Shown here in pieces: positions 38,734-57,818 of a stretch of 64,000 nucleotides of DNA. The stretch comes from a phage. The position numbers were made by a program, and so were the translations under genes. The stretch is taken from sequence record PX393110.1. One strand, written 5' to 3'. The notes beneath the pieces were generated by a model. The model had not been told where the DNA came from. It was given only the letters and a program-made list of their open reading frames with translations, and made no database searches. The number at the start of each line of letters is the position of its first letter. Within the stretch, counting starts at the first letter, position 1.

Positions 38734-38737
38734 GTTC

Positions 38738-40479: not shown

Positions 40480-41950
40480 GTTCAACACTCTAGATTACTT
40501 CTCTCCTAACCTTAGAGGGAACGAGTTATATAAGTTCTTCTCGCAGGTGCTGGATCATGGTCTAGAGACTGTTGTCTTTCCGGAGATGGATAAAAATACG
40601 GCGATTTATGATCCTAGTAAACCGTCGTATGATCCGATTTACATCCTGGAGCTACTGGGTCAACCAGACTTAGCAGATCTCATAACTACCGAGGTAGACC
40701 AGAACTCAGTATCTGTACTCCTCCCAAGTATCCTAGATAATAAGGGTATGAAGGATGGGGTTGATCTTATCTTTAAACTGATAAATGTAGAGATAGACGA
40801 GATCCTGTATCAGAAGACTCCGGAAGGGTGCTCACTAGCAACCATCCTGCTTCCTAAGAACGTGATCTTGTCTACTCGACAAATTAAGCTAATTGATCGT
40901 CTGTCGCGTAAGGTATTTCCGATATGCGTCAGACTTACCGGTATCGCTAACTGTCTTCCAGATGGTGTTGAGTCTCTCGGAAGCGCCTCGCTGGACACCA
41001 GCTGGTTGTTGGACACATCAATCCTGGATGGTTCGGTAGGTATACGAGTACCTGATATTTCAGATACTCTATGGTTAAGATTCTGTCTCGACATTATGTC
41101 AGAGATGGAAGTACCTCTTGAAGTGCTGATTGATCGCTTCTCGGATCGTCTGATTAACTCTTATCTGACCGTATTCGACAGAAGAACTATCAGATTGGAT
41201 AATGGTCTTATTCTGGACATGGGTACGTACTATGATCTCCAGAATACTGACACTACTCATAGCAGGCTTTATAGCTCATTAGCTGAGTTTAATGTCGATT
41301 TAAGCACCGACTCTAGAACTACCGAGATTGAGTCCTTACTGGACTTATCAGACCTGGTAGCTGGTCTGGAGTTTAAGTCCTCTATGCTGCGTGAGATCTT
41401 CCTATTCTTGGATATCGACCTCTCAGAGTTCGGATTCGGGAATTACATGGATAGGAAGATAGAGCACTTATCCAAGGGGATAGAGCAAGTAAATTACGGC
41501 TATGAGGGTGGTAATTACGCTGATGGTTACGATTTAACTAACTATCAGAGTTTCGAATACGAGAACTTATACGTAATCCAATCTCATCATGATGGCCAAA
41601 CTCAGCGTAGCGGGATGGCTTATTACGGATTGCCGGAAATAGACTGGCTACACTTCGAAGGTATGGACTTCATTAATGGGTCTTACCTGCTGGATGGTAC
41701 TCGCTATCTTCACCAGGAGTTCATTAAAAAGATCAAAGTGTACGATTGGTATACTCATTGGTCTAGCTACCGAGAAGCTATGTTCCTAACCACTCATAAG
41801 ACCGAAAGACTCTTAGAGAAACGGGATGGGACTATTCTCCATGACGGAACTTATAATCGCGGTGAGAAAGTAACTCGTTACGGATTCGAACCTCTGTACA
41901 ACGACGTTATTAGTCACGATGATACTTACTATCGCGATGCCAATCTATAG
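40457..41950 (+). CDS. Baseplate/tail fibre-associated protein (start uncertain among ATGs at 40457, 40466, 40472)
   Basis: 497 aa; position between baseplate genes and fibre genes. Confidence 0.4.
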   Translation: MRGMSMAKFNTLDYFSPNLRGNELYKFFSQVLDHGLETVVFPEMDKNTAIYDPSKPSYDPIYILELLGQPDLADLITTEVDQNSVSVLLPSILDNKGMKDGVDLIFKLINVEIDEILYQKTPEGCSLATILLPKNVILSTRQIKLIDRLSRKVFPICVRLTGIANCLPDGVESLGSASLDTSWLLDTSILDGSVGIRVPDISDTLWLRFCLDIMSEMEVPLEVLIDRFSDRLINSYLTVFDRRTIRLDNGLILDMGTYYDLQNTDTTHSRLYSSLAEFNVDLSTDSRTTEIESLLDLSDLVAGLEFKSSMLREIFLFLDIDLSEFGFGNYMDRKIEHLSKGIEQVNYGYEGGNYADGYDLTNYQSFEYENLYVIQSHHDGQTQRSGMAYYGLPEIDWLHFEGMDFINGSYLLDGTRYLHQEFIKKIKVYDWYTHWSSYREAMFLTTHKTERLLEKRDGTILHDGTYNRGEKVTRYGFEPLYNDVISHDDTYYRDANL

Positions 41951-41958
41951 GTGATTAG

Positions 41959-42726
41959 ATGAGCAATTATACTGGGGCATTTAACTTCCCTGCTCAGGTG
42001 TACCAATTTGAAGAGAGTGATGTGGTTAAAGGTGGTCCGGACGGCGTTGATAACGTGCCTCTTACCCAGCTTTCCGACCGTACGTTTTATCTTAAGGCTC
42101 TTGCAGATTTCACATTCCTTAAGCTGTTCAATCTGAACCCTCTCGGATCATTCAAAGAAGGATTCCAGATTAACGTGGCTGGGTATGCAGTCTTCGACGA
42201 GGCCTCCGGTAAGTGGTTTAAGTGGACAGGATCTCTGCCTAAAGTGGTGGTTAAGTCTTCTAAGCCCGAAACTACTGGCGGTATCTATGATCCGGTCACT
42301 AATCCGAGCGGTAAGTGGGTGGCTATTGACTTCAGTGTTCTAGACCTTGGCGCTGGGGTTAAGATCCCTACAGCAGCTGCTCTTGGTAATCTGTATAGCG
42401 GTAAGTACAATCCTGCCTTCGTTAAGATTGAGAATGTCTCCAATCTGGACATAGCAGAAGCTACATATACCCGACTCGGGAATGTAGTTACTGTTAATGG
42501 CAAGATCACTGCTTCTGCTACTGATGCTGGAGAAGTAATGAAAATCGGAATTGGCTTACCTATTAACTCTACCTTCTCAGATGACTCAAGTCTCTCAGGA
42601 GTTGGTGTTGGTGTAGTAGCTGGTCAGATTTATGCCGATGTGGACAGTAGCGTGGCTGTTCTTGAGATTAATCAGGGTAGTACAGACGAGCTGTCTCTGA
42701 GATACACGTTCTCTTACACTGTATAA
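41959..42726 (+). CDS. Tail fibre protein carrying the shared N-terminal module
   Basis: N-terminal segment (GGPDGVDNVPLTQLSDRTFYL...SGKWFKWTGSLPKVVVKSSKPETTGGIYDP) is shared with the 42739 protein. Confidence 0.55.
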   Translation: MSNYTGAFNFPAQVYQFEESDVVKGGPDGVDNVPLTQLSDRTFYLKALADFTFLKLFNLNPLGSFKEGFQINVAGYAVFDEASGKWFKWTGSLPKVVVKSSKPETTGGIYDPVTNPSGKWVAIDFSVLDLGAGVKIPTAAALGNLYSGKYNPAFVKIENVSNLDIAEATYTRLGNVVTVNGKITASATDAGEVMKIGIGLPINSTFSDDSSLSGVGVGVVAGQIYADVDSSVAVLEINQGSTDELSLRYTFSYTV

Positions 42727-42738
42727 TAGGATATCGAA

Positions 42739-45648
42739 ATGGGTGCTTATCAGGGTAAAAATCAGTACGTAGAGGACATCTATACCTTCGAACGTACTGA
42801 CAAAGTGTCGGGTGGAGATGACGGTATTGATAACGTACCCATTAAGAATCTCACCGACAGAACTACATATCTCCGTAGTTTAGCATTGAATTCATTCCTG
42901 GATATCTATGGGGTTAATCCTGTAGGTACTTTCGGAATAGGGTTTGATCTTCAGGAATCTGGGGACGGAGTGTACGATGAGGTATCTGGCAAATGGTATT
43001 ACTGGCTGGGCTCCTTCCCCAAATCTGTTGCCGAGAACTCATCTCCGGAAGATACTGGAGGTATTTTCGACCCAGAAAGTAATCCTGATGGGTTATGGAC
43101 TGAGGTAATTCCGGTAAACCAGCGTCAGGTGGACATGATAGCTCGGGCATTCAGAGTTAAGACAGAGGAAGTCCAGTTCATGAAAGTAGGTCGTCCTCTC
43201 GACGGCTTTCGTGTACTGTATGACTTAACTTCTCAGGAAGCCTATCGTTTGCCGATGGATATTCCAGAAGGATCAACTGTCGTCAGTCTAACAGCTGGTG
43301 GATGGCTCGTACACAGCAATGGTGGGGTGGACTTATCTGCCTATGCTGTTGAATTAGAAGAGTACAAGCACTTTACTGGGGGAGACTTCAGTACTGGCTT
43401 TACTCTACGTCAGAACCACTGCGTAGTTATGTATGACGGTGTTATGTATCGCTGGGATGGGGATTTTCCTAAAACAGTAAATGACAACAGTACTCCCGAA
43501 GAAGATGGTATCGGTGAAGGTAAATGGGTGGCGGTGGGTCCAAATTCCAAATTGCTTTATAACATTACCTGGGATGGATCATATCCAGATCAACCAGTTA
43601 TGGACGACCGCACCCAGAGATTAAATCTACCACTACCGGTTCAAACTAATAAACTGGTGGATGACGTTGTACGTCTGCGCGAGACCATTTCAACTCTGGA
43701 CGAGAAGGTGGCTACCGTTGGAAACGATGGTAAGATCCCGGTCGAGCAGATCCCAGCAGTAGCTATAACTGAAACATTTCCTGTCTCGAGCCAGGATGAG
43801 ATGTTGGCTCTCAATGCCCAGAAGGGAGACATTGCCATCCGTGACGACAATAGCCTGAGCTACATTCTGATGAATGAGCCAGCTTCCACGTTGGAAAACT
43901 GGAAGAAGTTCAAGAATGACGCTCTGGTGCAGTTAGGTAAGAACGGCGGTGTGAATCTGGTTAGTGGAGCTATCCATGCAGCCACGGATCAGGATTCACT
44001 TACTTTCGAGAACATAACAATTTCCGGTGAAGTATATAGTCACGACCCTAGCATATCTGGATTGGTTGAAGGATTCTCTGTCTATAACGGTAATTTATAT
44101 CTCACTCGCAATCAGATATCTTACAAGCTGTTGTCCAAAAGAAATAAGTTGCGCTGGCCTGGTCTGTACCTCTCTGGTGTAACTGATATGAAATCTTCGA
44201 TTGAGGCCATTATGAGCCATGGCCTCCACGTTGATCTTGATGGGAATGCTATCAGCGTATCTACCTTAAATATCACCAAAAATCTTTATAATGGTGAAAT
44301 CATTGCTACTGGAGATACCGGCTCGTTCATTACTGTGAACTCGTGCAAGCTGCTTAGAACCAGGATCAACTGTAACAATAAGGCTATACGCCGTGCTGTG
44401 CATCTGAAAACTGGTTCAATCCGTCCTACTTTGAAAAACACTGAGATTTTTGACAGTTCCGGAGCTACTAATGCAAATGGTGTCTTTATTGACGCGAATA
44501 ACATCACCGATTTCCTAGTAGAGGGCGTGTATGTCCATAATCTCACCTCTGTAGCTAATGGATCACAGGGAGATGCAGATGGTCCGTGCCGTGGGATTAT
44601 CGTTGGCACGGCTCTTGACCCAGCGCCATCTGAGGCCACGGTATCTAGCGGAGAAATTAATAATGTACGTATCCGCGACTTGGCACCTTTCGAGGACTGC
44701 GATGGTGTTGTGGTTCAGATTTACGATGCCTCGTCTGTAATGCTTAGAGCATCTAAAATCCGCGTCAAAAACGTTGATACTCACAATGTCAGGAAGAGAG
44801 CCGTCAAGATTCAGGCGAACGATGTCACCGTGAGCAACGTCTATGCTTATTGCGATACAACCGATACAGCAATGTATTCAATCGTCAGTCTATATGGTGA
44901 TAATGGGTATGCTGAGAATGTCACCGGACGAGGACGCATCAGTAATGGCATAGATTGCGCTTACGGCTTCAACAGAGTTAGCACACTTCACCTTAAAACC
45001 GAACGCACGGGTGCCGATACCCTTGCTGGGATTGGAGCAGGGTTGCTTATCAACTCCGGGCAAGTGGAAGCCAGTGGTATCTATTCCGAAGGTGCGGAAT
45101 ATGTTCTTGCTATCAGGGATGCCCTTGGCGTGACACCTTACGTCAAAGTCTCTGGTCTTCGCGGGCAGGGTTACAGCGGAGTGGCTCGTTTCCAGATACG
45201 AGCCGGAAACTCTATCGGCAGCGTTTACATTGACGACGTTTCGGCAAATTCCTCGGCAACAAATAAATCGGCGATATCCGTAGACATAACGTCCAATGGA
45301 ATAGGACTGGTAAATATCTCGGACGTGAAACGACTAAGTCAGCCATTCACCGGAGCAGACATTAATATGTCTGGGGCTGTCACGGAGGCAATTTTCCGCG
45401 ATTGTATTCTAAATTCTGGAAGCTCTACTGTTGGTATTTCCATGGCAACAGGAAAACTGACTGTTGAGAATATCAGTGCCCCTAGTAAGACGTATGCAGT
45501 TCAAGCTGTTCAGACGAGTAATTCATGGCTGAATAATATCGACGGAATAGTGCGTCTTGAGAATACGGCGAACACCAGACTTGGCCTCTATCGCGGAGTT
45601 TCTTCAGCTGGCACAAACACTGGTCTTCTCACGTTGAATTATGCGTAA
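42739..45648 (+). CDS. Tailspike protein (969 aa) with shared N-terminal module and beta-helix-like C-terminal region
   Basis: N-terminus GGDDGIDNVPIKNLTDRTTYL...SGKWYYWLGSFPKSVAENSSPEDTGGIFDP; long repetitive region consistent with a depolymerase-type spike. Confidence 0.55.
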   Translation: MGAYQGKNQYVEDIYTFERTDKVSGGDDGIDNVPIKNLTDRTTYLRSLALNSFLDIYGVNPVGTFGIGFDLQESGDGVYDEVSGKWYYWLGSFPKSVAENSSPEDTGGIFDPESNPDGLWTEVIPVNQRQVDMIARAFRVKTEEVQFMKVGRPLDGFRVLYDLTSQEAYRLPMDIPEGSTVVSLTAGGWLVHSNGGVDLSAYAVELEEYKHFTGGDFSTGFTLRQNHCVVMYDGVMYRWDGDFPKTVNDNSTPEEDGIGEGKWVAVGPNSKLLYNITWDGSYPDQPVMDDRTQRLNLPLPVQTNKLVDDVVRLRETISTLDEKVATVGNDGKIPVEQIPAVAITETFPVSSQDEMLALNAQKGDIAIRDDNSLSYILMNEPASTLENWKKFKNDALVQLGKNGGVNLVSGAIHAATDQDSLTFENITISGEVYSHDPSISGLVEGFSVYNGNLYLTRNQISYKLLSKRNKLRWPGLYLSGVTDMKSSIEAIMSHGLHVDLDGNAISVSTLNITKNLYNGEIIATGDTGSFITVNSCKLLRTRINCNNKAIRRAVHLKTGSIRPTLKNTEIFDSSGATNANGVFIDANNITDFLVEGVYVHNLTSVANGSQGDADGPCRGIIVGTALDPAPSEATVSSGEINNVRIRDLAPFEDCDGVVVQIYDASSVMLRASKIRVKNVDTHNVRKRAVKIQANDVTVSNVYAYCDTTDTAMYSIVSLYGDNGYAENVTGRGRISNGIDCAYGFNRVSTLHLKTERTGADTLAGIGAGLLINSGQVEASGIYSEGAEYVLAIRDALGVTPYVKVSGLRGQGYSGVARFQIRAGNSIGSVYIDDVSANSSATNKSAISVDITSNGIGLVNISDVKRLSQPFTGADINMSGAVTEAIFRDCILNSGSSTVGISMATGKLTVENISAPSKTYAVQAVQTSNSWLNNIDGIVRLENTANTRLGLYRGVSSAGTNTGLLTLNYA

Positions 45649-45653
45649 CAGTG

Positions 45654-45673
45654 CCCCCGCTGCTTGGCGGGGT
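45654..45673 (+). terminator. Possible terminator or structural hairpin after the tailspike gene
   Basis: CCCGC-TGCTTG-GCGGG hairpin immediately after the stop; no clear U-run. Confidence 0.3.
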
Positions 45674-45863
45674 CCCACCAACCGGAGGTCAACTACACTT
45701 ATGAATAAGGTATCCATAAAGTTTAGTAGCCTGATTTATGGCAGGTTCACGCTATCTACAAAAAGTGAAAATCATAGTCATAATGTAGGTGATTATGATT
45801 TTAACCAAGAGGAACTTACTCTCTGGTTTGGGAATTAGTATATAATATATTATAGGTGAATAA

Positions 45864-48848
45864 ATGTCTTATAATCCGATCTTAGAAGGATCAACCTGGC
45901 CGGAGACTATTCGTCGCTTAGAAAAGACGGATAGGGCGGAAGGTGGGCCACTAGTTACTAATTCTGAGGATGAACCAGTATCTGGACATATTAATCATCC
46001 AATAACTCAGTTAGCTACCAGAACTTCCATTTTAAAAAAGTATAATTTATCGATAATTAATAACACTAAAGAACAGTGGAAATTATTACTCGGTGACTTA
46101 GGACTAACTCTTGTTGGTACTTTTGAAGAAGGCGCTACTACTAACAGCAAGACTGATGCTGTTTGGCATATTGCTGGTGGTCAGTGTTACGTGTGGGGTG
46201 GTTTACTCCCTAAGACTGTATATGCTAACTCCACACCGCTAACTACTGGTGGTATCTCTGCTGATGCTTGGGTTAGTATTGGTGATGCCGCACTGCGAGG
46301 GCAAATATCAGACCCGGACGGTGCGACAAAATACCCTGAATTGCAGATTGCTAGATGGCGTGACACTTTTGACCCTCGCGGTTGGGGAGCTAAAGGTGAT
46401 GGATTAGTTGATGATACTGTGGCTCTTAATAATCTGTTAAACGCTGCGCCAGTGGGTCAGAAAATTAATGGTAACGGTAGAACCTATAAAGTATCTGTGC
46501 TTCCAGATATTAGCCGATTCGTCAACACTCGTTTCGTTTATGAGCGTATTCCTGGCCAGACGCTTTATTATGTGTCTGACGAGTTTGTTCAGGGTGAGTT
46601 AATTAAAATAACCGACACGCCTTATTACAATGCCTGGCCGCAGGATAAAGCGTTCGTTTACGACGATGTTATTTACTGTCCGTTCATGGCTAGCGATCGG
46701 CACGGGGTTAGCAGGCTGCATGTATCCTGGGTTCGCTCAGGTGATGACGGACAGACCTGGACGACCCCGGAGTGGCTAACCGACCTGCACCCTAATTACC
46801 CGACAGTTAACTATCACTGTATGAGTATGGGTGTGATGCGCAACCGCCTATTTGCGATGATTGAAACCCGTACATTGGCATCTAACGCACTGGTGACTTG
46901 CGAGTTATGGGATCGGCCCATGTCCCGTAACTACCATCCGACAGGTGGCATCACAAAAGCCGCCAACCAGCCTGTGGCTGTAATTACCATCCCTGAACAC
47001 GGTCTTTTTGCTGGGGATTTTGTTAACTTCTCAAACTCTGGGGTGACTGGCGTTTCAGGGAATATGACTGTAACTTCAGTTATTGACCGCAACACGTTTA
47101 CAGTTACCACGCCAAATCAACAAGCATTCGACCAAAATAACTCTACCAGCCGCTGGCATATGGGGACATCGTTCCATCAGTCACCATGGCGTAAAACCAG
47201 CCTTGGATTGATCCCCATGGTTACCGAGGTTCACAGTTTTACCGCCATCAATAACGATTCATTCATGATGGGATATCACCAGGGTGATGTTGCTCCGCGT
47301 GAAGTCGGTATGTTGTATTTTCCGGATGCGTTCAACAATCCTGGGCTTTATCAGAAACGGCATATTCCTGCTGAATATGAGCCAGATGCGGCAGAACCCT
47401 GCGTTAAGTATTTTGACGGTGTTCTTTATGTTGTAACCCGTGGAACCAGGTCTGATCGTCTTGGTAGTTCTCTGCATCGCAGTAGCGACCTGGGGATTAC
47501 CTGGCAATCACTGAGGTTTCCGAATAACGTCCACCACTCTACCCTGCCATTCGCTAAGGTAGGAAACGAACTGATTCTTTTCGGCACCGAACGCGCCGAC
47601 AACGAGTGGGAAGCAAACGCACCGGATCAACGATATTTCAGTTCTTACCCACGGACGTTCTACACGAGAGTGAACCTCGACACCTGGAACCTGAATAATA
47701 CTCAGTGGGTAAATATCACTGATCAGATTTATCAGGGTGGTATTGTTAACTCTGGCGTCGGTGTCGGATCGGTCGTCGTGAAAGATAGTTATATCTATTA
47801 CATGTTCGGTGGGGAAGACCATCTGAACCCATGGACATATGGAGATAACTTAGAGAAAGACCCATTCAAATCAGACGGTCATCCCTCAGATTTGTATTGT
47901 TACAAAATGCAGATCGGTCCAGACAATCGTGTTTCTCGTGATTTCAGGTACGGTGCTGTACCTGACAGAGCGGTTCCAGTGTTTTTTGATACGAATGGAA
48001 TTCGCACTGTTCCTGCGCCTATGGAGTTCACCGGTGATTTAGGGTTAGGTCATGTGACCATTAGAGCCAGCACCAGTAATAACGTTCGCTCTGAAGTTTT
48101 AATGGAAGGTGAGTATGGGTTTATTGGGAAATCTGTACCTACTAATAACCCAGCAGGACAGCGCACCATATTTTGCGGTGGCGAAGGAACCAGTTCTTCT
48201 ACTGGTGCACAGATTACGCTTTATGGTGCTAATAACACAGCTTCTCGCAGGATAGTTTACAACGGAGCTGAGCATCTGTTCCAGACTGCTGACGTTAAGC
48301 CTTATAACGATAACGCGATTGCGCTCGGTGGGCCTAGCAACCGATTCACTACTGCATACCTCGGAAGCAACCCTATTGTTACTTCTAACGGGGAGAAGAA
48401 AACAGAGCCGGTATTTTTTGACGATGCTTTTTTAGATGCTTGGGGCGACGTTCATTACATCATGTACCAGTGGTTGGATTCTGTACACTTGAAAGGAAAT
48501 GACGCTAGAATTCATTTTGGCGTAATTGCTCAGCAGATCCGCGATGTATTCATTGCTCACGGTCTGATGGATGAGAATAGCACGGATTGCCGCTATGCCG
48601 TTCTGTGTTACGACAAATATCCTCGCATGACAGACATGGTGTTCTCTCACAATGAAATCGTTGAACACACTGACGAGGAGGGTAATGTAACTACCACGGA
48701 AGAACCTGTATACACCGAGGTGGTTATTCACGAAGAGGGTGAGGAGTGGGGTGTGCGGCCTGATGGAATTTTCTTTGCTGAGGCAGCATTCCAGAGAAGA
48801 AGACTGGAGAGAATCGAAGCCAGACTTTCCGATCTTGAAAAGAAATAG
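45864..48848 (+). CDS. Endosialidase-like tailspike with C-terminal intramolecular chaperone domain
   Basis: 994 aa; N-terminal W-G-P-K module variant (GQCYVWGGLLPKTVYANSTPLTTGG); two Asp-box (BNR) repeats SGDDGQTW and SSDLGITW; C-terminal DDAFLDAWGDVHYIMYQW...IHFGVIAQQIRDVFIAHGL typical of peptidase S74-type chaperone domains. Confidence 0.65.
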   Translation: MSYNPILEGSTWPETIRRLEKTDRAEGGPLVTNSEDEPVSGHINHPITQLATRTSILKKYNLSIINNTKEQWKLLLGDLGLTLVGTFEEGATTNSKTDAVWHIAGGQCYVWGGLLPKTVYANSTPLTTGGISADAWVSIGDAALRGQISDPDGATKYPELQIARWRDTFDPRGWGAKGDGLVDDTVALNNLLNAAPVGQKINGNGRTYKVSVLPDISRFVNTRFVYERIPGQTLYYVSDEFVQGELIKITDTPYYNAWPQDKAFVYDDVIYCPFMASDRHGVSRLHVSWVRSGDDGQTWTTPEWLTDLHPNYPTVNYHCMSMGVMRNRLFAMIETRTLASNALVTCELWDRPMSRNYHPTGGITKAANQPVAVITIPEHGLFAGDFVNFSNSGVTGVSGNMTVTSVIDRNTFTVTTPNQQAFDQNNSTSRWHMGTSFHQSPWRKTSLGLIPMVTEVHSFTAINNDSFMMGYHQGDVAPREVGMLYFPDAFNNPGLYQKRHIPAEYEPDAAEPCVKYFDGVLYVVTRGTRSDRLGSSLHRSSDLGITWQSLRFPNNVHHSTLPFAKVGNELILFGTERADNEWEANAPDQRYFSSYPRTFYTRVNLDTWNLNNTQWVNITDQIYQGGIVNSGVGVGSVVVKDSYIYYMFGGEDHLNPWTYGDNLEKDPFKSDGHPSDLYCYKMQIGPDNRVSRDFRYGAVPDRAVPVFFDTNGIRTVPAPMEFTGDLGLGHVTIRASTSNNVRSEVLMEGEYGFIGKSVPTNNPAGQRTIFCGGEGTSSSTGAQITLYGANNTASRRIVYNGAEHLFQTADVKPYNDNAIALGGPSNRFTTAYLGSNPIVTSNGEKKTEPVFFDDAFLDAWGDVHYIMYQWLDSVHLKGNDARIHFGVIAQQIRDVFIAHGLMDENSTDCRYAVLCYDKYPRMTDMVFSHNEIVEHTDEEGNVTTTEEPVYTEVVIHEEGEEWGVRPDGIFFAEAAFQRRRLERIEARLSDLEKK

Positions 48849-48968
48849 TAAATAAAGCTTTTTTACCGTAGGTAGGGGGGCTTCAATTTAAGATTTAACT
48901 TAAACCAATTACCACTCTAAAGTTACTAAGTATTTGTACATCATGTAATATTTTTATGGAGATCACCA

Positions 48969-51590
48969 ATGGGCGGTCGTTCTAGGTTATTTAGCGAACT
49001 GGGCGGAGCTCCTCTTAATACTTATCAGCATGATAATCAGACTCTCGATATTCGCGAGTTAGAGAGTCAGCAGAAAGTATTAGACGAGACTCTTGCCGAA
49101 ACAATCGGCGATGTTAGCGAACTACAGCAGACTGCTGGACAGTCTATGTATATCCTCGGTAACTACGCTGCTGGAATGGTGATCGAGAACGACCGCCAGT
49201 ACGTCAGACATGAGAATCTGCTGTACTACTGGACTGGTCCTGTACCGTTTACCACTACTGGTAACTTCTACGAAGAATCCTACTGGACTGGTGGGGTGCA
49301 GAGTGGTATCGAATGGAGCTACGAAGTACAGGAAGATGGTGAGTTTGAGTTTGAAGTACCATACTCCTTCACCAGCGTACGCCTGTTCGTGGGTGGCGCT
49401 CGCCTTACTCGCGTAGAAGATTACACTATCGATGTGATTAATCGCAAGATCACTCTGACTAAGATTAAACTGTCGAAGGGCGTCCTGGTAACTGCCGAGC
49501 TGAATTCTCGTGATGCTCTCAGCGTTACCCAGGATCGCATCGATAGCCTTACCAGAGAGATCTCAGAGAAAGTAGGCTTTGTTAACTACAAACTTACTGA
49601 TCTGTCGGAAGGTCAGAGCCTTACCCTAACTACCAGAGTTCAGACTGTAAGCTTCTCACTAAATGGGGAGTATTACAAATGGGATGGTGTTCTTCCTAAA
49701 GTCGTTAACTATGGAGATCCGGAACCAGCTCAATCTGAGCAGGGTACTGGTAAGTGGATTCCTGTAGGTTCTGGCGCCTTGAAATCAGAACTGGGCAAAG
49801 TCAGCGACACTACTGGAGCGGTTCTTGTAGCTCTACCACAAGGCGGTAACGTGGCGAACGGTATTCGCTATGTAACTCCCGAAATGGCTGGTGCTAAAGG
49901 AGATGGTACCACTGATGACACCACAGCCGTTCGTAACGTTGTAGCTCTCGCCAAATTAACTGGTCTTAAAATCACCGGTGGAGCGAACTATAAGATCTCG
50001 AATGCTTCAATCGATATCTCTGGTACTGTCATTGAGAACCTACGTCTTAAAGGAAGTGGGTCTAGCTCTATACTGCTAGTTAATGGCAATACTGCCATAT
50101 CTAATCTAACCCTAAATAGGGTAGGTATTAGACACACTAACGGTATCTTAAACCTGGACAAATTTGAGATCAATGACTGTAGTGCTACTGCGGCTATTTT
50201 AAGCCTTCAGCTAACATCACCTGGACAAATATTTCTCACCAATGGTGTTATGCGTCGTTGTAATTACGGTTACCTTCGTCAGGGATCTCCAGCTTCTTCC
50301 CAGCCGCTGACTACTTCATTACTTCGGAATTTACAATTCTTCGATATGAAGGGTGATCCAATCGAGATCAATCTGGCGATAGCTGATACCAACACTACTA
50401 TCGATCAAATAACCATAGATAACGTGGACTCCACAGCTACCGGGAATACTAACTGGGGTATTGCTATAGGCTTAGCTGGGATGGGTAACTACTCACCCAC
50501 TGCCGCAGACTCAGAGTACATGTCTGATGTAACCATAAGTAATATTAAGATTACCGGAGCCAAACAGTGTCTGCACTTGGAGAAATGCAGAAACATTAGA
50601 ATCAGAAATATCGACATACATCCGGATTCCACTAAGTCAACCGGAGTTGGGTTGGATACTGGTGGTTTCATAGCTTATGGATGTAAAGAGATATACGTGG
50701 ATGGTGTAACTGGGTCTCCAACCAACGGAACGGAAGATATGATTCGTTTCGCTTGGGGATCTGTTAACAATGCGTTTACCTTCGCTCATCGAAATGTGCA
50801 CTTAAGAAACGTCAATGTAACAGGTACTGTTAAAGTGGAGGTTAGCTGTTCTGATACCCTAGCTTCGACTGTAGAGATGAGAAATATCAATGCAACAACG
50901 ATATCTCTCCAAGGCATGGCGTCTGAATACCAGCTGTCAGATTGGTCCGCTGAGAAGATGGTGTTGGATTTCAGATATGTTAGCGGAGATGCTAGAGATA
51001 ATTACCGTAGAAATGCGTGGTCAATTGCTACCATCAGTAATTTGAAATGCCTGAATTCTAACACTGGCGCTCCTGAGGTTACTGTACAGAACATCACTGT
51101 GGATACATTGGAAGTTTCTGGGTGTAACTTCCCTATCCAGAAGACTTTAACTGCTACCCATTGGAGAGGAACTCCTGCATGGCGGCAGAATGGTATTATT
51201 TACCACTCTAAGACCGGAACTCCTTATGGCATGGCTCTTCTTGCTGGTGACACTATCGTTGCTAGTGACGGAACTATGTTCACGGTGACCTCCCCTGGAG
51301 CTCTGTTCTACTCAAACGAAACTGTTGCGGCCGCTACTGCTGGGTCTAACGCTATTCGTTCTAAAACTAACCTTAACTGGACTGGTCAGTATTATAAGAC
51401 TGCTGGGTGTAAGGTTAAAATAGCAGGAGGTGGAGGTGCTGACGGCTCTGATTACATCGGTACTATTGTCCGCAGTGGTTATATTAACAGTGGTAATTAC
51501 TACTTTGATGTTTACCCACCACTTCAGTCTAACGTACCTGATGGCGCAGTATTAACTTCCGTAGAAGTACCAGCCTTTAAAACAGTTTAA
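48969..51590 (+). CDS. Tailspike / tail fibre protein (873 aa), beta-helix-like
   Basis: W-G-P-K motif (YYKWDGVLPKVVNYGDPEP); repeated short beta-rung-like segments. Confidence 0.5.
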   Translation: MGGRSRLFSELGGAPLNTYQHDNQTLDIRELESQQKVLDETLAETIGDVSELQQTAGQSMYILGNYAAGMVIENDRQYVRHENLLYYWTGPVPFTTTGNFYEESYWTGGVQSGIEWSYEVQEDGEFEFEVPYSFTSVRLFVGGARLTRVEDYTIDVINRKITLTKIKLSKGVLVTAELNSRDALSVTQDRIDSLTREISEKVGFVNYKLTDLSEGQSLTLTTRVQTVSFSLNGEYYKWDGVLPKVVNYGDPEPAQSEQGTGKWIPVGSGALKSELGKVSDTTGAVLVALPQGGNVANGIRYVTPEMAGAKGDGTTDDTTAVRNVVALAKLTGLKITGGANYKISNASIDISGTVIENLRLKGSGSSSILLVNGNTAISNLTLNRVGIRHTNGILNLDKFEINDCSATAAILSLQLTSPGQIFLTNGVMRRCNYGYLRQGSPASSQPLTTSLLRNLQFFDMKGDPIEINLAIADTNTTIDQITIDNVDSTATGNTNWGIAIGLAGMGNYSPTAADSEYMSDVTISNIKITGAKQCLHLEKCRNIRIRNIDIHPDSTKSTGVGLDTGGFIAYGCKEIYVDGVTGSPTNGTEDMIRFAWGSVNNAFTFAHRNVHLRNVNVTGTVKVEVSCSDTLASTVEMRNINATTISLQGMASEYQLSDWSAEKMVLDFRYVSGDARDNYRRNAWSIATISNLKCLNSNTGAPEVTVQNITVDTLEVSGCNFPIQKTLTATHWRGTPAWRQNGIIYHSKTGTPYGMALLAGDTIVASDGTMFTVTSPGALFYSNETVAAATAGSNAIRSKTNLNWTGQYYKTAGCKVKIAGGGGADGSDYIGTIVRSGYINSGNYYFDVYPPLQSNVPDGAVLTSVEVPAFKTV

Positions 51591-51614
51591 TAGATTAAAC
51601 TGAGGAGATTATTG

Positions 51615-53066
51615 ATGTCCACCCAATTGCCAGATAGTCTGCAGCCAAGCAGCCTTAAGTATAAAGGTGACTATGCGGCTGGTATTTACCTTAACGGAAA
51701 CCACTGCATCCTTCGCTTTGTACGCACTGATGGTAAGAAGGTGTTGGTTAAGTGGGTGGGGGAAGTCCCCCACACCACCGACGGCGAGACTCCGTATACC
51801 GATACCGACCAAACTACTCTTAAAGCTGGTTACGAGCTCTTCTCCCAGACGAATGCAGTAGACTTCATTATTTCAATGTTCAGTTCCTCCACATCCTGGC
51901 GCTATATCGGCCAGGTTAACTCTGTGGAAGATCTGAAGACTATCACTCCTAAGGATGGCGATCGAGTGATAGTTAAAGGCTACTTCGGGGAAGGTACTCC
52001 CGGAGGTGGTGAGTTCCGAGTTAAGACTACCAATGACTCTATTCCTTCGGACAGTAAGGATGTAGTCAATGGTTGGGTACGAGTTCGTCGTAGCAAGGAG
52101 TATCACGCTACCGAGTTTGGTGCTGTTCCTGATAAGTTAACTGACTCTACTGGTCAGGTTCAGGATATGCTCACTACTATCACCACTGGTCTGGCTATAA
52201 TTGATCCTGGTGTTAAGTATACCCTAGCTAACTTAACTATCAAGCCTGGCGTCCAGATTCTGGATATGTCTGGATGGGACGGTAGTTCATGGACGGCTGC
52301 AGTGAGATTCATCAGTAACTCTACTGATGGGTTGATAATCTCTTCTGCATCCAATGCTAACCTTAACCTCAACAGTAACAACGGGTTAGCCAGAGCTAAG
52401 GTATCTTACAGCGTAAGCGGAACTAAGATCTGGGAATCGGGTATGAGCGATGACTCTAACCGAGACTGGCATGTTCTTCGAGGATCTGAGTCTCGTTACC
52501 GTGTGGTATCTGCTTCCCAGGCTCACGCATGGAACAGAGATACCATAGTTGAAGGTGTCGATTACCACTACGGTAAGAGAGCATCTGAGAATCATGTTCT
52601 TCGCTACGATGCAGTGAGTACTGGCTATGATATCATTCATACCTATTACCACGGTACCACTCTCACCTCTAAGATAACCCATAAAGGCGATGGATCAGTA
52701 ATCCTGACCCAGAATGGTAAGGATACCATCAAGATAGTAGATGGTGTAATGACTGGTGCCCTGAAGAAGATCATCACGTCTACAGCTAACGTAACTCTTA
52801 CTGCAGCTGATACTGGTGCTATTTGCACTACTGATGGTGCCACTTCTTCGGTTACCATTACCCTGCCAGTAGCTGTTCCTGGTATGACCTATGATGTACT
52901 CGTAGGTGCCAACTACAGCGTATCAGTGAAAACTGGCGGTACAGATCTCTTCCGTAATGGGAACGCTACTGTTTCTAACTCGGATAAGGGATCCTGGTTA
53001 CGCTTAGTTTGCGCTATCTCCGGTTACTGGGAGATGGATACTGTTCAGGGTACCTGGGCAAGTTAA
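51615..53066 (+). CDS. Tail fibre protein (484 aa)
   Basis: ATG at 51615 with GAGGAG RBS (the track begins 3 nt earlier at a TTG); Ser/Thr/Gly-rich fibre-like composition. Confidence 0.45.
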   Translation: MSTQLPDSLQPSSLKYKGDYAAGIYLNGNHCILRFVRTDGKKVLVKWVGEVPHTTDGETPYTDTDQTTLKAGYELFSQTNAVDFIISMFSSSTSWRYIGQVNSVEDLKTITPKDGDRVIVKGYFGEGTPGGGEFRVKTTNDSIPSDSKDVVNGWVRVRRSKEYHATEFGAVPDKLTDSTGQVQDMLTTITTGLAIIDPGVKYTLANLTIKPGVQILDMSGWDGSSWTAAVRFISNSTDGLIISSASNANLNLNSNNGLARAKVSYSVSGTKIWESGMSDDSNRDWHVLRGSESRYRVVSASQAHAWNRDTIVEGVDYHYGKRASENHVLRYDAVSTGYDIIHTYYHGTTLTSKITHKGDGSVILTQNGKDTIKIVDGVMTGALKKIITSTANVTLTAADTGAICTTDGATSSVTITLPVAVPGMTYDVLVGANYSVSVKTGGTDLFRNGNATVSNSDKGSWLRLVCAISGYWEMDTVQGTWAS

Positions 53067-53082
53067 TTAAACGGAGACTACT

Positions 53083-53904
53083 ATGTCCTTTATGGTATTG
53101 GCCGAAAGTGGCCACATAGCTTTAGCTAAAACGGTGCATGATGCAAATCTGCACTTTGCATGGGGCACCATCCCAGATGCTGTAGCTGCTCCAGAAACCA
53201 TGTCTGCCTCCGCGGTAGATGGTGGTACTCTGGATCCTGCCACGTATACTTATGTGGTTACTGCAGCCAACAAATTCGGTGAAACCACCGCATCCATGGC
53301 TGCTACTGCTACTATCGTTGCTTCGGCTTCTCAGCAGTCTATTCAGTTAAACTGGGGTGCATCTGCGAATGCTGAGAAATACATCATCTATCGCCAGGGC
53401 ACCAACTCCTATGATAAAATTGGTGAGTCTACTTCTAATACTTTTACTGATAACGGCAGCACTACTCCAGATAGCTCGGTTAATCCTCCTACGACGAACA
53501 CTACATTCCCGTCTGCATGGACTAAACCAGCACCTAACCCGGACCCGTCGCTACCTGATATGTATGCTGAAGTCGGACGCCGTAAGATCCTCACCAAGGA
53601 ATATGTGAAACAGGATCCTAATGGTACCATCGAGACTTCAGAAGGAAAGTGGTCTATCTCCGATAAGCCAACTAAGCATCTGTATCTGCATGTTCAGTTT
53701 AACTATACTGATGCTCCAGATGACATGATCTACCAGTTCGCTATCTTCATAGGGACTGTACCTACTGATGGTAATGAGAATGCTCTTTACCTCACCCCAG
53801 ATATGATTAAGGAAAAGGGAGAGATGCTCGGAATTGAGAACCATACCCTGATTATTCGTGAGTCCACTACCCGCGAAGGTCATTCCGTCATCCTCACGTT
53901 CTAA
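53083..53904 (+). CDS. Tail fibre-associated protein with an FN3-like segment
   Basis: 273 aa; YTYVVTAANKFGETTAS...QSIQLNWGASANAEKYIIYRQ resembles a fibronectin type III beta-sandwich. Confidence 0.35.
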   Translation: MSFMVLAESGHIALAKTVHDANLHFAWGTIPDAVAAPETMSASAVDGGTLDPATYTYVVTAANKFGETTASMAATATIVASASQQSIQLNWGASANAEKYIIYRQGTNSYDKIGESTSNTFTDNGSTTPDSSVNPPTTNTTFPSAWTKPAPNPDPSLPDMYAEVGRRKILTKEYVKQDPNGTIETSEGKWSISDKPTKHLYLHVQFNYTDAPDDMIYQFAIFIGTVPTDGNENALYLTPDMIKEKGEMLGIENHTLIIRESTTREGHSVILTF

Positions 53905-53915
53905 CGGAGTAATAA

Positions 53916-56900
53916 ATGGCAACTTTACCGTCTGATTACTTTAACAGATTCGCGGCTAAGAAGAACTATGCCAAGCATCTGTTTATCGCGGACAGACCGC
54001 TCCAGAGCTCGGAGCTAAATGAAATTCAGGATCAGCAGCTCAATAACGTCTCTACACTGTCCGGCTTCTTGGTCGGTGATGGTGCCATTACTGATGGGGC
54101 GGATATTTCCGCTCTTGGGGACGGTGTGATCTCTATCACTGAGGGTACGTTAATCTATGCCGGTATGGCTATGAACGTACCCGCTGTTACGGATGCATCG
54201 TTCCCGACTGCTGGAGAGGCTGTTTTAGGTGTATCTATCTCTGATAAGGTAATCACCTATCTCGATGATCCTGAGCTTCTCATGCAGTATCAGAACTCTC
54301 CGAGCTATGGTTCAGCTGGTGCTGACCGTCTCCAGAAGGTGACTACTTGGCTGTTAGCCGATGATGTCCCAGAGGGAGATACCTTCTTCCCAGTATTCTA
54401 CTTCAAGAATGGCGTACTGGTAAAAACCACTAAGTCTCGTAACGATCTCGACCAGTTCTCTGGTCTTCTGGGTCGCTACGACTCTGATACCCATGGTAAC
54501 TACGTACTGGATGGCCTTACTCTGTCCTATGCAGGTATCGATGGTTCCACCCAGCAGATCATGTTGAACATGGCTGCGGGCAAGGCTCGTGTACTTGGCA
54601 ACGAAGCACTGTTCGCCTATGAAAGTACCGTGCGTCTGGACCCTATCAACGATACCGGTAACGTAGCTTCCGAGCCGTATGTGTTTACAGCAGGTACTTA
54701 TACCTATCAATTGCGCTACTCTGTAATTGATCAGGTAACTGCTGTTTCTGGTACTAAGCAGGTAACTCGTACGGTAACTCATGGCTCCGCAACGGGTTCG
54801 TCTGACTTACTTCCGGATACTCCTGTTCTGCAGATTATTTCTGTGCAGCAGGGTGGTACTGTCTACGTTAAAGGTAGTGACTATGTACAGAACGGGGACT
54901 CTGTAGACTGGTCACCTACTGGTAACGAACCATCTCCTGGTTCTACTTATCAGGTTACGTACCAGTACATTGACCAGTTCATCCCGACCTGGAACGATAC
55001 CTCTATCACTATTTCCACCAGTGATGCTCTGGTATCTGGGTCTACGTTCTACGTAACCTACTCTTACTTCCTGTCTCGCTATGACCGTGTATCTATCGAT
55101 GCCTCCGGCGCGGTGCAGATTACTAAGGGTATTCCAGCAATCCTGGCGAATGCTCAGTTGCCAGGTACTTCCGCTACGTTGCTGTCCATTGCAACTATTC
55201 GTCTGACTAAAGGTCAGGATCCGGTCATCAACAATGATCGTATCGAAGTAGTTACTTATAATGAGCTGAAAGATCTGATGTCTCTGGTAAGCGACATGCA
55301 GTACAACATCGCCCAGCTTTCGCTTCGTGATGAAACTCGCTCTACCGATCCGACTACGACTAAGAAAGGTGTGGTAGTTGACTCTCTGCTTAACGGTAAC
55401 ATGCGTGATGATGGTCTTACCAACAACGCCATCGTTGATGAAGGTCAGCTGTTCATCGGAGCATCTTTCTCTCGTCAGTCTAGCCTGGCTCCTGATGGTC
55501 TTATGTTATCGTTTACCGATACCGTAATTCAGTCTCAGGAATTCCGTACCAAGGATACTCGCATCAACCCGTATGCTGGTTCCGGCCAGGTACCTCAGGC
55601 GATGATCTCTGTGTCTCCAGCTAAGATCGATACTCGTGGCTTCTGGTCGTACTTCCATGGTGGATTCCTGCCAGTGGATACTACGATTACGATTAAGCTG
55701 TCTGGGTATGCTGCTAATGAGCAGATTGATCTTACGTTCCGTAACCTCGCAGTGGTTACCTTGGTTGCGGATGACAACGGTACAGCACAGTATGCTCATA
55801 TGCTATCTGGTGGCTTGATTAACGGTACGTATCAGTATGTTGCTACCGGTAAGACTACTAAGGCTGTGACTCGCGGTACAGTAACCATCTACAACTCCGG
55901 TAGGGTCGACTACGGTCAGAACTGGACTGGTGGTGCTGTGCCATGGGGTTACGACCCAGTAGCTCAGACTTTCACTATCCAGGCTACTCGTGATATTAAC
56001 GCAGTGTCTATCTACCTAACTGAACTGCCTACTAACACGCTCCAGATTAAACTGGTTCCGACTAAGGTCGGTATTCCGGACTCTACCCAGCTTTACGGCT
56101 TCGGTGAAGTTCCGGCTAATAAATGCGTGCTGGGATGGAACAAGATCAATCTTCGTTATCCAGTAACGGTAACTGGCGGTACTGAGTACTCCATCATCGT
56201 CGCTACGGCTAACTATCAGGGTAAGGTGGCTACAGCTAAGATTAACGGGTACGATACCGATAAGAAACAGTATGTAGTGAATCAGCCAGCGCAGGGTGTA
56301 CTGTTAACTTCTGCGAACGAATCTACCTGGTCTCCGGTTCAGGATGAAGACTTGATGTATCGTCTCCATGCCACTAACTATGGCTCTACCCGTACCGTGA
56401 ACTTAGGTTCTGTAACAGTAGCTAGCAATACCAACAGTCTGTCACTGACTGCTGATATTGAGACTCCGGCAAATACCTCCGTGAGATTCTACCTCACTAA
56501 CGGTACTGATAACATTAACCTCAACGTTAACTCTGAAACGTACACTGAGAACTTCTCTGGTACTTTCAGTCTGATGGCAGAGTTTAATACTGGTGATCCT
56601 ACTGTATCTCCGAAGGTCTTCGGTGGCGTCATCTTCCGTTCTGGCACTACTGATACTCCTGGGGTATATACCCAGCGTCAGTTCAGTATTCCTAACGGTA
56701 ACGTTACTCCGGTAACGCTTAACGTCATCCTGGATCAGTATGTGCCATCTGGTGCCAGCGTAACTGTTCAGTACCAGAATGGTAGTAACTGGGTAGCCTT
56801 GACTGGGGGCACCGGAACCGCTCTGGGAGATGGGTGGTATACCGTACCTTACAAACTGTCAGGAGTCAATGTGGCTAATACCCGCATCCGTATCATCCTG

Positions 56901-56960
56901 TCTCTGTCTAACCCAGTTAACCGTCCGTTCGTTAAGAACGTTCGCGCATACTTTAGCTAA
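53916..56960 (+). CDS. Large tail fibre / tailspike protein (1014 aa)
   Basis: Largest ORF of the fibre cluster; Thr/Ser/Gly/Val-rich beta-type composition. Confidence 0.5.
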   Translation: MATLPSDYFNRFAAKKNYAKHLFIADRPLQSSELNEIQDQQLNNVSTLSGFLVGDGAITDGADISALGDGVISITEGTLIYAGMAMNVPAVTDASFPTAGEAVLGVSISDKVITYLDDPELLMQYQNSPSYGSAGADRLQKVTTWLLADDVPEGDTFFPVFYFKNGVLVKTTKSRNDLDQFSGLLGRYDSDTHGNYVLDGLTLSYAGIDGSTQQIMLNMAAGKARVLGNEALFAYESTVRLDPINDTGNVASEPYVFTAGTYTYQLRYSVIDQVTAVSGTKQVTRTVTHGSATGSSDLLPDTPVLQIISVQQGGTVYVKGSDYVQNGDSVDWSPTGNEPSPGSTYQVTYQYIDQFIPTWNDTSITISTSDALVSGSTFYVTYSYFLSRYDRVSIDASGAVQITKGIPAILANAQLPGTSATLLSIATIRLTKGQDPVINNDRIEVVTYNELKDLMSLVSDMQYNIAQLSLRDETRSTDPTTTKKGVVVDSLLNGNMRDDGLTNNAIVDEGQLFIGASFSRQSSLAPDGLMLSFTDTVIQSQEFRTKDTRINPYAGSGQVPQAMISVSPAKIDTRGFWSYFHGGFLPVDTTITIKLSGYAANEQIDLTFRNLAVVTLVADDNGTAQYAHMLSGGLINGTYQYVATGKTTKAVTRGTVTIYNSGRVDYGQNWTGGAVPWGYDPVAQTFTIQATRDINAVSIYLTELPTNTLQIKLVPTKVGIPDSTQLYGFGEVPANKCVLGWNKINLRYPVTVTGGTEYSIIVATANYQGKVATAKINGYDTDKKQYVVNQPAQGVLLTSANESTWSPVQDEDLMYRLHATNYGSTRTVNLGSVTVASNTNSLSLTADIETPANTSVRFYLTNGTDNINLNVNSETYTENFSGTFSLMAEFNTGDPTVSPKVFGGVIFRSGTTDTPGVYTQRQFSIPNGNVTPVTLNVILDQYVPSGASVTVQYQNGSNWVALTGGTGTALGDGWYTVPYKLSGVNVANTRIRIILSLSNPVNRPFVKNVRAYFS

Positions 56961-56969
56961 GGAGTAAAC

Positions 56970-57146
56970 ATGTCTAGCAACGAACCATGGTTCAAGACTG
57001 GATTCGAAACCGAGATACCGGCCGTAGCGCCGGTAAACTCAATCTTCCAGTCCTTACAGGGTAAAAGATGGAGATTTGATGGCCAGGGATGGGTCGAAAT
57101 AGAGTCTCTACAGGCGGCTCTCCAGAGAAAACAGGCTCAGAAATGA
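56970..57146 (+). CDS. Small protein (58 aa), below the ORF-track threshold
   Basis: ATG at 56970 preceded by AAGGAGTAAAC; translation MSSNEPWFKTGFETEIPAVAPVNSIFQSLQGKRWRFDGQGWVEIESLQAALQRKQAQK; fills the gap between the fibre and endolysin genes. Confidence 0.4.
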   Translation: MSSNEPWFKTGFETEIPAVAPVNSIFQSLQGKRWRFDGQGWVEIESLQAALQRKQAQK

Positions 57147-57170: not shown

Positions 57171-57818
57171 ATGGGCGTTACACTTGACCAGCTGAAGAAG
57201 TTCCTCCCAACGACTTCAACGGAAGTACTGGAAAAGCTACTGCCTGCCATTAATACTACTATCGAGCGTTACGGTATCAATACCAATCGTCGTCTGCGCT
57301 ATTTTATGGCGCAGACTGCTTTTGAAACTCGGGACTACACTAAATTTGTGGAGTCCCTGTATTATACCACTGCGTCTCGTCTGGTAGATGTATGGCCGAG
57401 CAGATTTACTCTTCGTGGCGAGCCTGGGAAGCTTAATGCGACTGCTTATATACGCGATTCAGAGAAATTGGCTAATCAGGTATATGCTAATCGCATGGGT
57501 AACGGGAATCCGGCCAGTGGTGATGGGTACAAGTACATTGGTCGTGGCGCGATGCATCTAACTGGCAAAGCAAACTATCGTGAAGCCTCATTGGATATCT
57601 TCGGCGATGACCGTTTGGTAGAAGACCCAGAGTTAGTCGCGACGGATTTCGAGACGATCATGCTTACTGCAGGATGGTTCTGGGATAAAAATAAATTAAA
57701 TCAATTAGCAGATCAGGACGCATTCACCAAAGTAACCCAGAAGATAAATGGGTCTGCTGCGACCGTACCTGACCGACTGCCTGTACTACGCAGAGCAAAT
57801 CAGACTTTAACTCTTTAA
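57171..57818 (+). CDS. Endolysin, GH19-type (chitinase-class lysozyme)
   Basis: FMAQTAFETRDY and GDGYKYIGRGAMHLTGKANY match the GH19 catalytic core. Confidence 0.7.
   Translation: MGVTLDQLKKFLPTTSTEVLEKLLPAINTTIERYGINTNRRLRYFMAQTAFETRDYTKFVESLYYTTASRLVDVWPSRFTLRGEPGKLNATAYIRDSEKLANQVYANRMGNGNPASGDGYKYIGRGAMHLTGKANYREASLDIFGDDRLVEDPELVATDFETIMLTAGWFWDKNKLNQLADQDAFTKVTQKINGSAATVPDRLPVLRRANQTLTL

Follow-up and report, generated by a model that had tools for sequence, protein, structure and literature searches.

The DNA analysed here is a stretch of 64,000 nucleotides (nt) from a phage (sequence record PX393110.1), referred to below as the window. Between positions 41959 and 56960 it carries seven contiguous open reading frames (ORFs), all on the + strand, which we designate A, B, C, D, E, X and F (Table 1). 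All seven are intact and conserved in relatives. Domain content and comparison with these relatives suggest that the locus is, quite probably, the receptor-binding block of an IME392-like Escherichia coli myovirus, in which A to E would each join an adaptor specific to the lineage to an exchangeable distal domain. The initial annotation had described this interval as six contiguous tail fibre or tailspike genes, several of them sharing an N-terminal docking module. The coordinates of the six genes are correct, but X had been left out; furthermore, F is a conserved DUF4815 baseplate protein which lacks the module and is not swapped.

Table 1. Genes of the receptor-binding block and flanking genes in the window (aa, amino acids)
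Feature	Position	Strand	Length (aa)	Remarks
gpV-like OB-fold spike	38074-38733			5' of fibre block
gp25-like protein	38606-39109			5' of fibre block
Wedge subunit phrog_219	39106-40479			5' of fibre block
Wedge-3 candidate	40457-41950	+	497	directly 5' of A; proposed from gene order
A	41959-42726	+	255	anchor motif, PF18668, small C-terminal domain
B	42739-45648	+	969	adaptor part 42739-43548, distal part 43549-45648
C	45864-48848	+	994	adaptor 45864-46292, endosialidase and chaperone part 46374-48848
D	48969-51590	+	873	slot-specific adaptor, phi92 gp150-like domain
E	51615-53066	+	483	tail fibre/spike-like, own N-terminus
X	53083-53904	+	273	BW3TFN connector, PF25691
F	53916-56960	+	1014	DUF4815 tripod-type baseplate protein
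GH19 endolysin	57171-57818			3' of F

The shared N-terminal module

In A, B and C the module is made up of two parts, an anchor motif of about 50 aa (GG..G..N.P...L..RT..L, at aa ~9-50) and a following domain of about 65 aa, centred on W.G..PK.V...S.P..TGG, which corresponds to Pfam family PF18668 (Tail_spike_N). This family is the N-terminal domain of phage CBA120 TSP1 and of G7C gp66. BLASTP gave 48% identity between A and B over aa 1-123 (E = 7e-40), and the alignments of A with C (29-33% over 134-143 aa, E = 1e-10 to 6e-12) and of B with C (~120-140 aa aligned, E = 2e-6 to 4e-9) are also significant. Residues 89-211 of C align with residues 216-344 of D (E = 1e-10), and B can be aligned colinearly with D over aa ~86-267 (E = 3e-6); given where the match to C falls in D, the part that D shares is internal rather than N-terminal. 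Residues 215-256 of B align with residues 18-63 of protein E at E = 6e-5 to 1e-4, values obtained in a tiny database, while F shows no similarity to any other protein of the cluster. The distal parts have no significant similarity to each other, as the initial annotation had stated for the C-terminal regions.

Profile searches gave a consistent picture. Against the Pfam gathering threshold of 25 bits, PF18668 scores 37.9 bits in A, 86.3 in B (two copies), 55.7 in C and 25.7 in D, the last being borderline, and all four proteins match Protein Data Bank (PDB) chains bearing a PF18668-type domain, including CBA120 TSP1, TSP3 and TSP4. Proteins E and F have no PF18668 match in Pfam at E<=0.01. With a hidden Markov model (HMM) built from the window's own copies, E reached 6.3 bits and F 0.6 bits, the best of 1550 shuffled decoys scoring 7.3. 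The candidate copy in protein E reads WVGEVP, with scores that are not significant, and hhalign gave 51% probability for the alignment of E-slot N-termini with the PF18668 domain. In a regular-expression scan of the six frames of the window, the anchor motif was confined to A, B and C, and W.G..PK.V to A, B (twice), C and D; since copies occur nowhere else in the window, the motif is specific to the cluster. Altogether, the full module is present in three genes (A, B and C) and a partial, internal copy in D; its presence in E is doubtful, and F has none. The proposal of a motif repeated in all six genes thus holds for the first three, and partially for D, but does not extend to the last two.

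These data bear on the simplest arrangement that could be envisaged, namely six parallel tailspikes each docking alone via one and the same N-terminal module. That A, B and C carry the full module at their extreme N-termini and that the genes are contiguous and co-oriented speaks in its favour. However, F lacks the module and is a homologue of the DUF4815 tripod, which already contradicts the arrangement for this protein; the match in E is not significant; the copy in D (aa 213-270) and the second copy in B (aa 204-270) are internal; D and E have conserved N-termini of their own; and a seventh gene, X, lies within the block. We consider such an arrangement improbable. In particular, the internal copies in B and D indicate that PF18668 is not the baseplate-contacting end in every case, and the N-termini of D and E, which are slot-specific, conserved and devoid of the anchor motif, make the notion of one shared docking module too simple. 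What stands of that notion is the presence of conserved adaptors on exchanged distal parts.

The module itself is widespread. A profile of the N-termini of A, B and C, run against 1.84 billion cluster representatives (50% identity), matched 2842 clusters at E<=1e-3 and 167 at E<=1e-10. In many of these matches the whole module occupies residues 1-124 of proteins of 144-890 aa; its occurrence, complete, on proteins of so many lengths points to one adaptor type joined to many distal parts. A tblastn search found the module in 150 phage records that span several families and mostly carry tail spike or fibre annotations, among them Vequintavirinae, P2-like prophages, Drulisvirus, and N4-like and T7-like phages. 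From the breadth of both searches we conclude that the module is a common, known adaptor.

Distal parts of A to E

The clearest assignment concerns gene C. Its adaptor (aa 1-143) has the anchor motif with a 10-aa insertion, followed by PF18668 at aa 85-141. The remainder comprises an endosialidase part (aa 171-840) and a C-terminal intramolecular chaperone (aa 841-994), as judged from Pfam matches to End_beta_propel (PF12217, 676.7 bits), End_tail_spike (PF12219, 256.9), End_beta_barrel (PF12195, 136.8), End_N_terminal (PF12218, 116.3) and Peptidase_S74 (PF13884, 34.5), and from PDB matches to 3gvl/1v0e (the endosialidase endoNF of phage K1F, E = 0), 3gw6 (chaperone domain, E = 3e-174) and 4hiz (E = 6e-232). 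K1F residues E581, R596 and R647, reported as catalytic by Stummeyer et al. 2005, align to identical residues of C (E511, R526 and R577). K1F Ser911, the serine at which the chaperone is cleaved off, corresponds to S841 of C, so that the boundary between the mature protein and the C-terminal domain (910/911 in K1F) falls at T840/S841, with identical flanks. Scored in blocks of 50 aa, C is 70-96% identical in aa sequence to K1F gp17 (endoNF, Autographiviridae) from K1F aa ~200 through to the C-terminus; in contrast, the first ~150 aa of gp17 cannot be aligned with C, which has an IME392-type anchor at that place. At the nt level the endosialidase segment is 87-88% identical to phages YX22 (155 kb) and UE-S5a (74 kb) and 78% identical to the podovirus K1F. 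By homology, C is a K1F-type endosialidase (GH58) with catalytic residues and chaperone domain intact, and its predicted activity is the cleavage of alpha-2,8-polysialic acid (K1-type capsule).

In D, an adaptor of 270 aa, with PF18668 at its end and a weak copy at ~60-100, precedes a region (aa 275-866) that matches residues 27-616 of the chain in PDB entry 6e0v (phi92 gp150) at E = 1.4e-66. D also matches phrog_6117, labelled 'colanic acid degradation' (E = 4e-170), and a near-identical homologue carries the precomputed Pfam assignment PF27800 (WcaM). D is thus probably a phi92 gp150/WcaM-like depolymerase acting on colanic acid. Positions 49747-51246, corresponding to the presumed catalytic core of D, are only 66-74% identical to IME392 at the nt level, as compared to about 90% in the flanks. 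A divergent core between conserved flanks argues for allelic replacement inside a single gene, and the substrate of D could differ from that of the IME392 enzyme.

Gene E matches phrog_4250, an EPS depolymerase family (E = 5e-11, aa 84-221), as well as two tail-fibre PHROGs. A homologue 93% identical to it carries precomputed Pfam PF27114 (Phage_tail_beta), and identity to the homologue in the same slot of EP_H11 is 40% over the full length. We regard E as a conserved tail fibre or spike-like protein; its membership of PF18668 being doubtful, it is not counted in that family.

Protein A consists of the anchor (aa ~9-50), PF18668 (aa 57-125) and a small beta-rich C-terminal domain of ~130 aa (aa 126-255), and is probably a short fibre. 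No enzymatic domain was recognised in it, either by Pfam or by a Foldseek search with an AlphaFold2 model. The model of A, predicted from an alignment of 6 sequences, had a mean predicted local distance difference test score (pLDDT) of 51.5, too poor to classify the fold of the C-terminal domain. Only three close homologues of A were found among 5.8 billion proteins, and word-indexed homologue searches with A, E and the 40457-41950 product returned between 1 and 6 proteins each. With so few homologues deep alignments cannot be built, and the lineage is rare in public data. A and B are about equally similar to one single gene of EP_H11, and the pair looks like a lineage-specific duplication.

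The adaptor of B (aa 1-270) is composite: the anchor and a first PF18668 copy (aa 1-125) are followed by a TSP1-like region (aa 127-270) that ends in the second copy, and aa 133-326 match residues 21-218 of PDB 4oj5 (CBA120 TSP1) at E = 1.7e-30. The distal part comprises a neck (aa ~300-430), 63% identical to a tail spike of Aeromonas phage ST4 and common to many tail proteins, and then a presumed domain (aa ~400-960). A tblastn search aligned aa 399-960 at 64% identity with gp168 from the Shigella phage Gloob (Agtrevirus, Ackermannviridae), a protein annotated as a right-handed beta helix; Gloob infects Shigella boydii. The distal domain of B is therefore presumed to be a beta-helix receptor-binding or depolymerase domain; its target might be an O-antigen or capsule related to the target of the Shigella boydii Agtrevirus spike. 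No beta-helix match was found in the distal part with Pfam. The 215-nt intergenic region that follows B (45649-45863) opens with a GC-rich hairpin, GCCCCCGC...GCGGGG, at ~45653-45675. The hairpin lies inside the segment missing from IME392 and, for that reason, has probably arrived with the distal module of B.

Exchange among related loci

To describe the variation of the block, six related loci were considered: those of phages IME392 (L001, MH719082) and EP_H11 (L002, OP688485) and four metagenomic contigs (L003-L006). A search of the full-text literature on IME392, EP_H11 and DUF4815 returned no paper dealing with this tail apparatus. Across these relatives the flanks are kept (the wedge proteins are 92-99% identical), the N-terminal adaptors are retained slot by slot and the distal parts are exchanged. 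IME392 and EP_H11 have the same slot order and a backbone 94-96% identical at the nt level throughout the structural module, and the A, C, D, E, X and F proteins of IME392 are 83-97% identical to those of the window. The B slot differs: where the window has a fused spike of 969 aa, IME392 has a bare adaptor of 305 aa and five extra fibre and chaperone genes. DNA similarity between the two ends at 43529, corresponding to B aa ~264 and to the end of the second PF18668 copy, and restarts at 45847; the counterpart of the distal part of B in IME392 is 5.1 kb of other fibre and chaperone genes.

Bare B-slot adaptors of 305-316 aa are found in IME392, L003, L004, L005 and L006. B is at least 80% identical to these proteins up to aa ~260 and unrelated beyond, and its adaptor shares 88-93% identity with the free-standing proteins of IME392 and L004; L005 and L006 have genes of matching size. 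Wherever the contig extends far enough, small fibre genes lie 3' of the bare adaptor (L001, 8781-14595; L003, 1-6942; L005, 5053-11588; L006, 2011-8309). The genes after the adaptor include CBM_4_9-like proteins and, in L003, L005 and L006, assembly chaperones of family PF16778 (Phage_tail_APC). The succession of bare adaptor and fibre genes argues that aa 1-266 of B are a self-contained scaffold carrying other fibres.

This inference brings up a second alternative, in which the block would encode a strictly hierarchical branched complex as in CBA120 and G7C: one or two proteins, for instance B and D, would touch the baseplate, and the others would hang on their PF18668/TSP1-like domains. Residues 127-270 of B are indeed homologous to the N-terminal domains of CBA120 TSP1, TSP3 and TSP4, the colinearity of B and D noted above goes in the same direction, and in most relatives the fibre genes after the bare adaptor lack the anchor motif, suggesting that their products dock there. 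On the other hand, the same anchor in A, B and C suggests equivalent sockets, and family searches in Pfam, PHROGs, NCBIfam and PDB found no match to T4 gp10 for any of A to E. We find a strictly hierarchical complex on balance unlikely, even if the bare adaptors of the relatives favour at least some branching of the spikes.

The other slots show similar discontinuities. C is at least 80% identical to its L003 homologue up to aa 140 and differs thereafter; its adaptor shares 87% identity with the N-terminal 155 aa of the 740-aa protein in the C slot of L003, the remainder being different, and at the DNA level the identity of 95% extends over 45847-46286 and is then lost. The N-terminal 270 aa of D are at least 90% identical to IME392. 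Of the C, B and D slots, EP_H11, which lacks A and has four different spikes, retains only the initial 60, 123 and 204 aa, respectively, at about 50% identity. Each breakpoint coincides with the end of a domain (B aa ~264, C aa ~141, D aa ~270). Finally, the closest relatives of the distal parts are found in unrelated phages, namely K1F and N4-like endosialidases, phi92 gp150 and Agtrevirus Gloob gp168. Slot-conserved N-termini with differing distal parts in six related loci, and breakpoints at domain boundaries, support the recombinational shuffling that the initial annotation had proposed.

The same findings weigh on a more conservative reading, according to which the N-terminal similarity would be a mere trimerisation or folding unit derived from tandem duplication, with no role in docking or exchange, and some of the genes would be non-structural morons or remnants. 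The resemblance of A and B to a lineage-specific duplication, with a single EP_H11 gene about equally similar to both, and the lack of a recognisable receptor-binding domain in A can be cited for it. However, the module is N-terminal on thousands of proteins with differing distal parts in many phage families, the exchange breakpoints coincide with module ends, and the ORFs are intact and conserved. We thus view it as the least probable of the alternatives and retain adaptors with exchangeable distal domains as the preferred reading.

Baseplate proteins and proposed arrangement of the spikes

X and F differ in nature from the genes that precede them. In X, aa 145-273 match Pfam PF25691 (BW3TFN) with 88.2 bits, the cut-off being 27, and the protein matches phrog_1394 at E = 1e-22. 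The BW3TFN family comprises T4 gp8, A511 gp105 and the arm segment of phage 812 (PMC10811340, PMC13433997). As pairwise BLASTP with the 173-aa Kayvirus arm segment is not significant, the assignment of X to the family rests on the profile. X is 95% identical in IME392 and L003 and 66% identical in EP_H11. An insertion of ~100 aa (aa ~31-132), weakly similar to FN3/GH85_C-like domains and to an esterase PHROG, is the part of X most divergent in EP_H11.

F scores 433.8 bits with Pfam DUF4815 (cut-off 30) and matches PDB entry 9euf and related phage 812 baseplate entries at E = 5.5e-44. By BLASTP, two of its regions (aa 6-472, E = 2e-38; aa 680-1009, E = 2e-12) align with the 1152-aa DUF4815 protein of Kayvirus S25-3, which is located in the gp119 tripod position and follows the arm-segment gene. 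The same order is found here, F starting directly 3' of X. Homologues of A511 gp106 are known as pyramid or tripod proteins (PMC11406892). F is 96-98% identical in IME392, EP_H11 and L003. By homology it is a DUF4815 tripod-type baseplate protein outside the set that shares the module, and it is not swapped. The idea of F as a sixth spike with a degenerate module was considered and rejected, as F lacks similarity to the other proteins of the cluster, is itself a homologue of the tripod over its full length and does not vary among relatives.

The N-terminal half of F matches 804 phage records, nearly all from Herelleviridae (342 Staphylococcus, 245 Bacillus, 69 Enterococcus, 54 Listeria); only 3 are Escherichia records, with a few more from Rhizobium, Wolbachia and Microcystis. 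The pairing of a DUF4815 tripod with a BW3TFN connector in a coliphage is the one unusual feature of the locus. In the Herelleviridae arm (phage 812 gp118-gp119, A511 gp105-gp106; PMC13433997, PMC11406892) the two are adjacent and in the same order, the Kayvirus tripod protein being 138 aa longer than F. The systems differ in their hosts and receptor-binding proteins: the Herelleviridae arm has RBP1/RBP2 tower proteins, whose genes lie 3' of the tripod gene, whereas the window phage has a Gram-negative host and PF18668-type spikes, encoded between the wedge-3 candidate and the connector.

The product of 40457-41950 is proposed as baseplate wedge 3 (T4 gp7/P2 gpI) and would be the likely platform carrying the fibres. 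Compared with EP_H11, its N-terminal ~220 aa are identical and its C-terminal half is 20-60% identical. In EP_H11 this C-terminal half and X diverge together with the N-termini of the fibres, and F does not, which is the pattern expected of co-evolving docking partners.

On these grounds we propose that A to E would form, around the baseplate periphery, a multivalent array of trimeric fibres and spikes. Domain content, homologies, slot-wise conservation and breakpoints are what the data show; virion incorporation, docking geometry, the sequence of events and all substrates but polysialic acid are what we infer from them. The anchors of A, B and C would plug into the periphery and D and E would attach via N-termini of their own, the socket being formed by the C-terminal half of the wedge-3-like protein together with the connector X. 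The PF18668 domains may serve as trimeric spacers, as branching platforms and as homologous joints for the exchange of distal domains, and the distal domains would degrade or bind distinct surface glycans. F would be a separate, invariant tripod-type protein, as in Herelleviridae baseplates, probably acting later than the variable spikes, through attachment to a conserved surface component, participation in baseplate rearrangement, or both.

Several points weigh against this proposal. The anchor motif has no match to a structure that shows it bound to a baseplate, and, with no anchor in D and E, two or more additional docking modes have to be assumed. The wedge-3 candidate was proposed from gene order, which is the sole basis of the assignment: its product has no match in Pfam, PHROGs (E<=1), NCBIfam or a PDB profile search (E<=10), no homologues were detected outside this phage group, and its AlphaFold2 model (pLDDT 29.7) is unusable. 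For A, Foldseek of the model against PDB gave nothing at E<=0.001, and the weak top matches, phage receptor-binding proteins, were not used as evidence. Both the beta-helix fold and the substrate suggested for B come solely from the uncharacterised homologue of 64% identity. Lastly, the similarity of D to NCBIfam TIGR04004 (WcaM), at E = 6e-21, is far under the equivalog cut-off; beyond this weak similarity NCBIfam gave nothing further on the cluster.

A more far-reaching version can be offered tentatively, as a possibility that we rate below even. The block might encode a hybrid adsorption machine in which a Herelleviridae-style arm has become a multi-socket rack for up to five Ackermannviridae/phi92-type spikes, with the tripod making a conserved contact with the Gram-negative outer membrane in a second step and with PF18668 ends as universal recombination joints. 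Such an arm (wedge-3 scaffold, BW3TFN segments, DUF4815 tripod) has so far been structurally studied only in phages of Gram-positive bacteria, and finding the tripod and connector pair in a coliphage could widen the Herelleviridae baseplate model to cover Gram-negative hosts.

The locus is clearly comparable to CBA120, phi92 and G7C and, in this respect, an ordinary instance of specificity-module swapping, which leaves the present understanding of how multi-spike phages work unchanged. CBA120 (Ackermannviridae), whose branched complex of TSP1-4 was described by Plattner et al. 2019 (PMID 31325442, as cited in PMC10811340; reference structures PDB 4oj5, 5w6f and 5w6h), likewise has several tailspikes of different specificity with PF18668-type N-terminal domains, but belongs to another lineage and has another baseplate, whereas the window phage has a DUF4815 tripod and BW3TFN. 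The multivalent adsorption apparatus of phi92 includes the endosialidase gp143 and the colanic-acid-degrading enzyme gp150 (PMC13450770). Like the window cluster, this myovirus combines an endosialidase, a gp150-like depolymerase and further fibres; its backbone is unrelated, its N-terminal adaptors are different, and C is nearer to K1F-type endosialidases than to 4hiz.

What the locus offers is a clean case of slot-wise exchange of specificity, with no fewer than five versions of the cassette (those of the window, IME392, EP_H11, L003 and L005/L006) on one phage backbone. The version in the window would be expected to act on K1 polysialic acid, colanic acid and one further O-antigen or capsule; such predictions are of use when therapeutic phages and depolymerases are to be selected or engineered. 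For swaps of receptor-binding domains, the ends of the adaptors (B aa ~265, C aa ~141, D aa ~270) provide practical splice points.

With regard to the genomic setting, the genes 5' of the fibre block follow the P2-like order V-W-J-I, and myovirus genes for structure and replication make up the remainder of the window. Of 50,697 phage records, only two were matched by the 24-kb structural region in megablast, vB_EcoM_IME392 (96%) and EP_H11 (96%). A promoter and terminator scan of 40-59 kb found sites no more frequently than in shuffled controls, and does not inform on operon structure. Between F and the GH19 endolysin lies an ORF of 58 aa (56970-57146, +), and an ORF of the same size is found at the same place in EP_H11 and L003. 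Genes for dCTP-deaminase-like and dUTPase proteins are located further downstream (60514-61137 and 61423-61893, both on the - strand). A study of thymidine-hypermodified genomes (PMC12686479) includes IME392 in its list of phages with YerA41-like DNA polymerases and, from this listing, the DNA of the window phage may be modified. Two tRNA genes are encoded in the window, tRNA-Met (CAT) at 14979-15054 and tRNA-Arg (TCT) at 15200-15276, both on the - strand.

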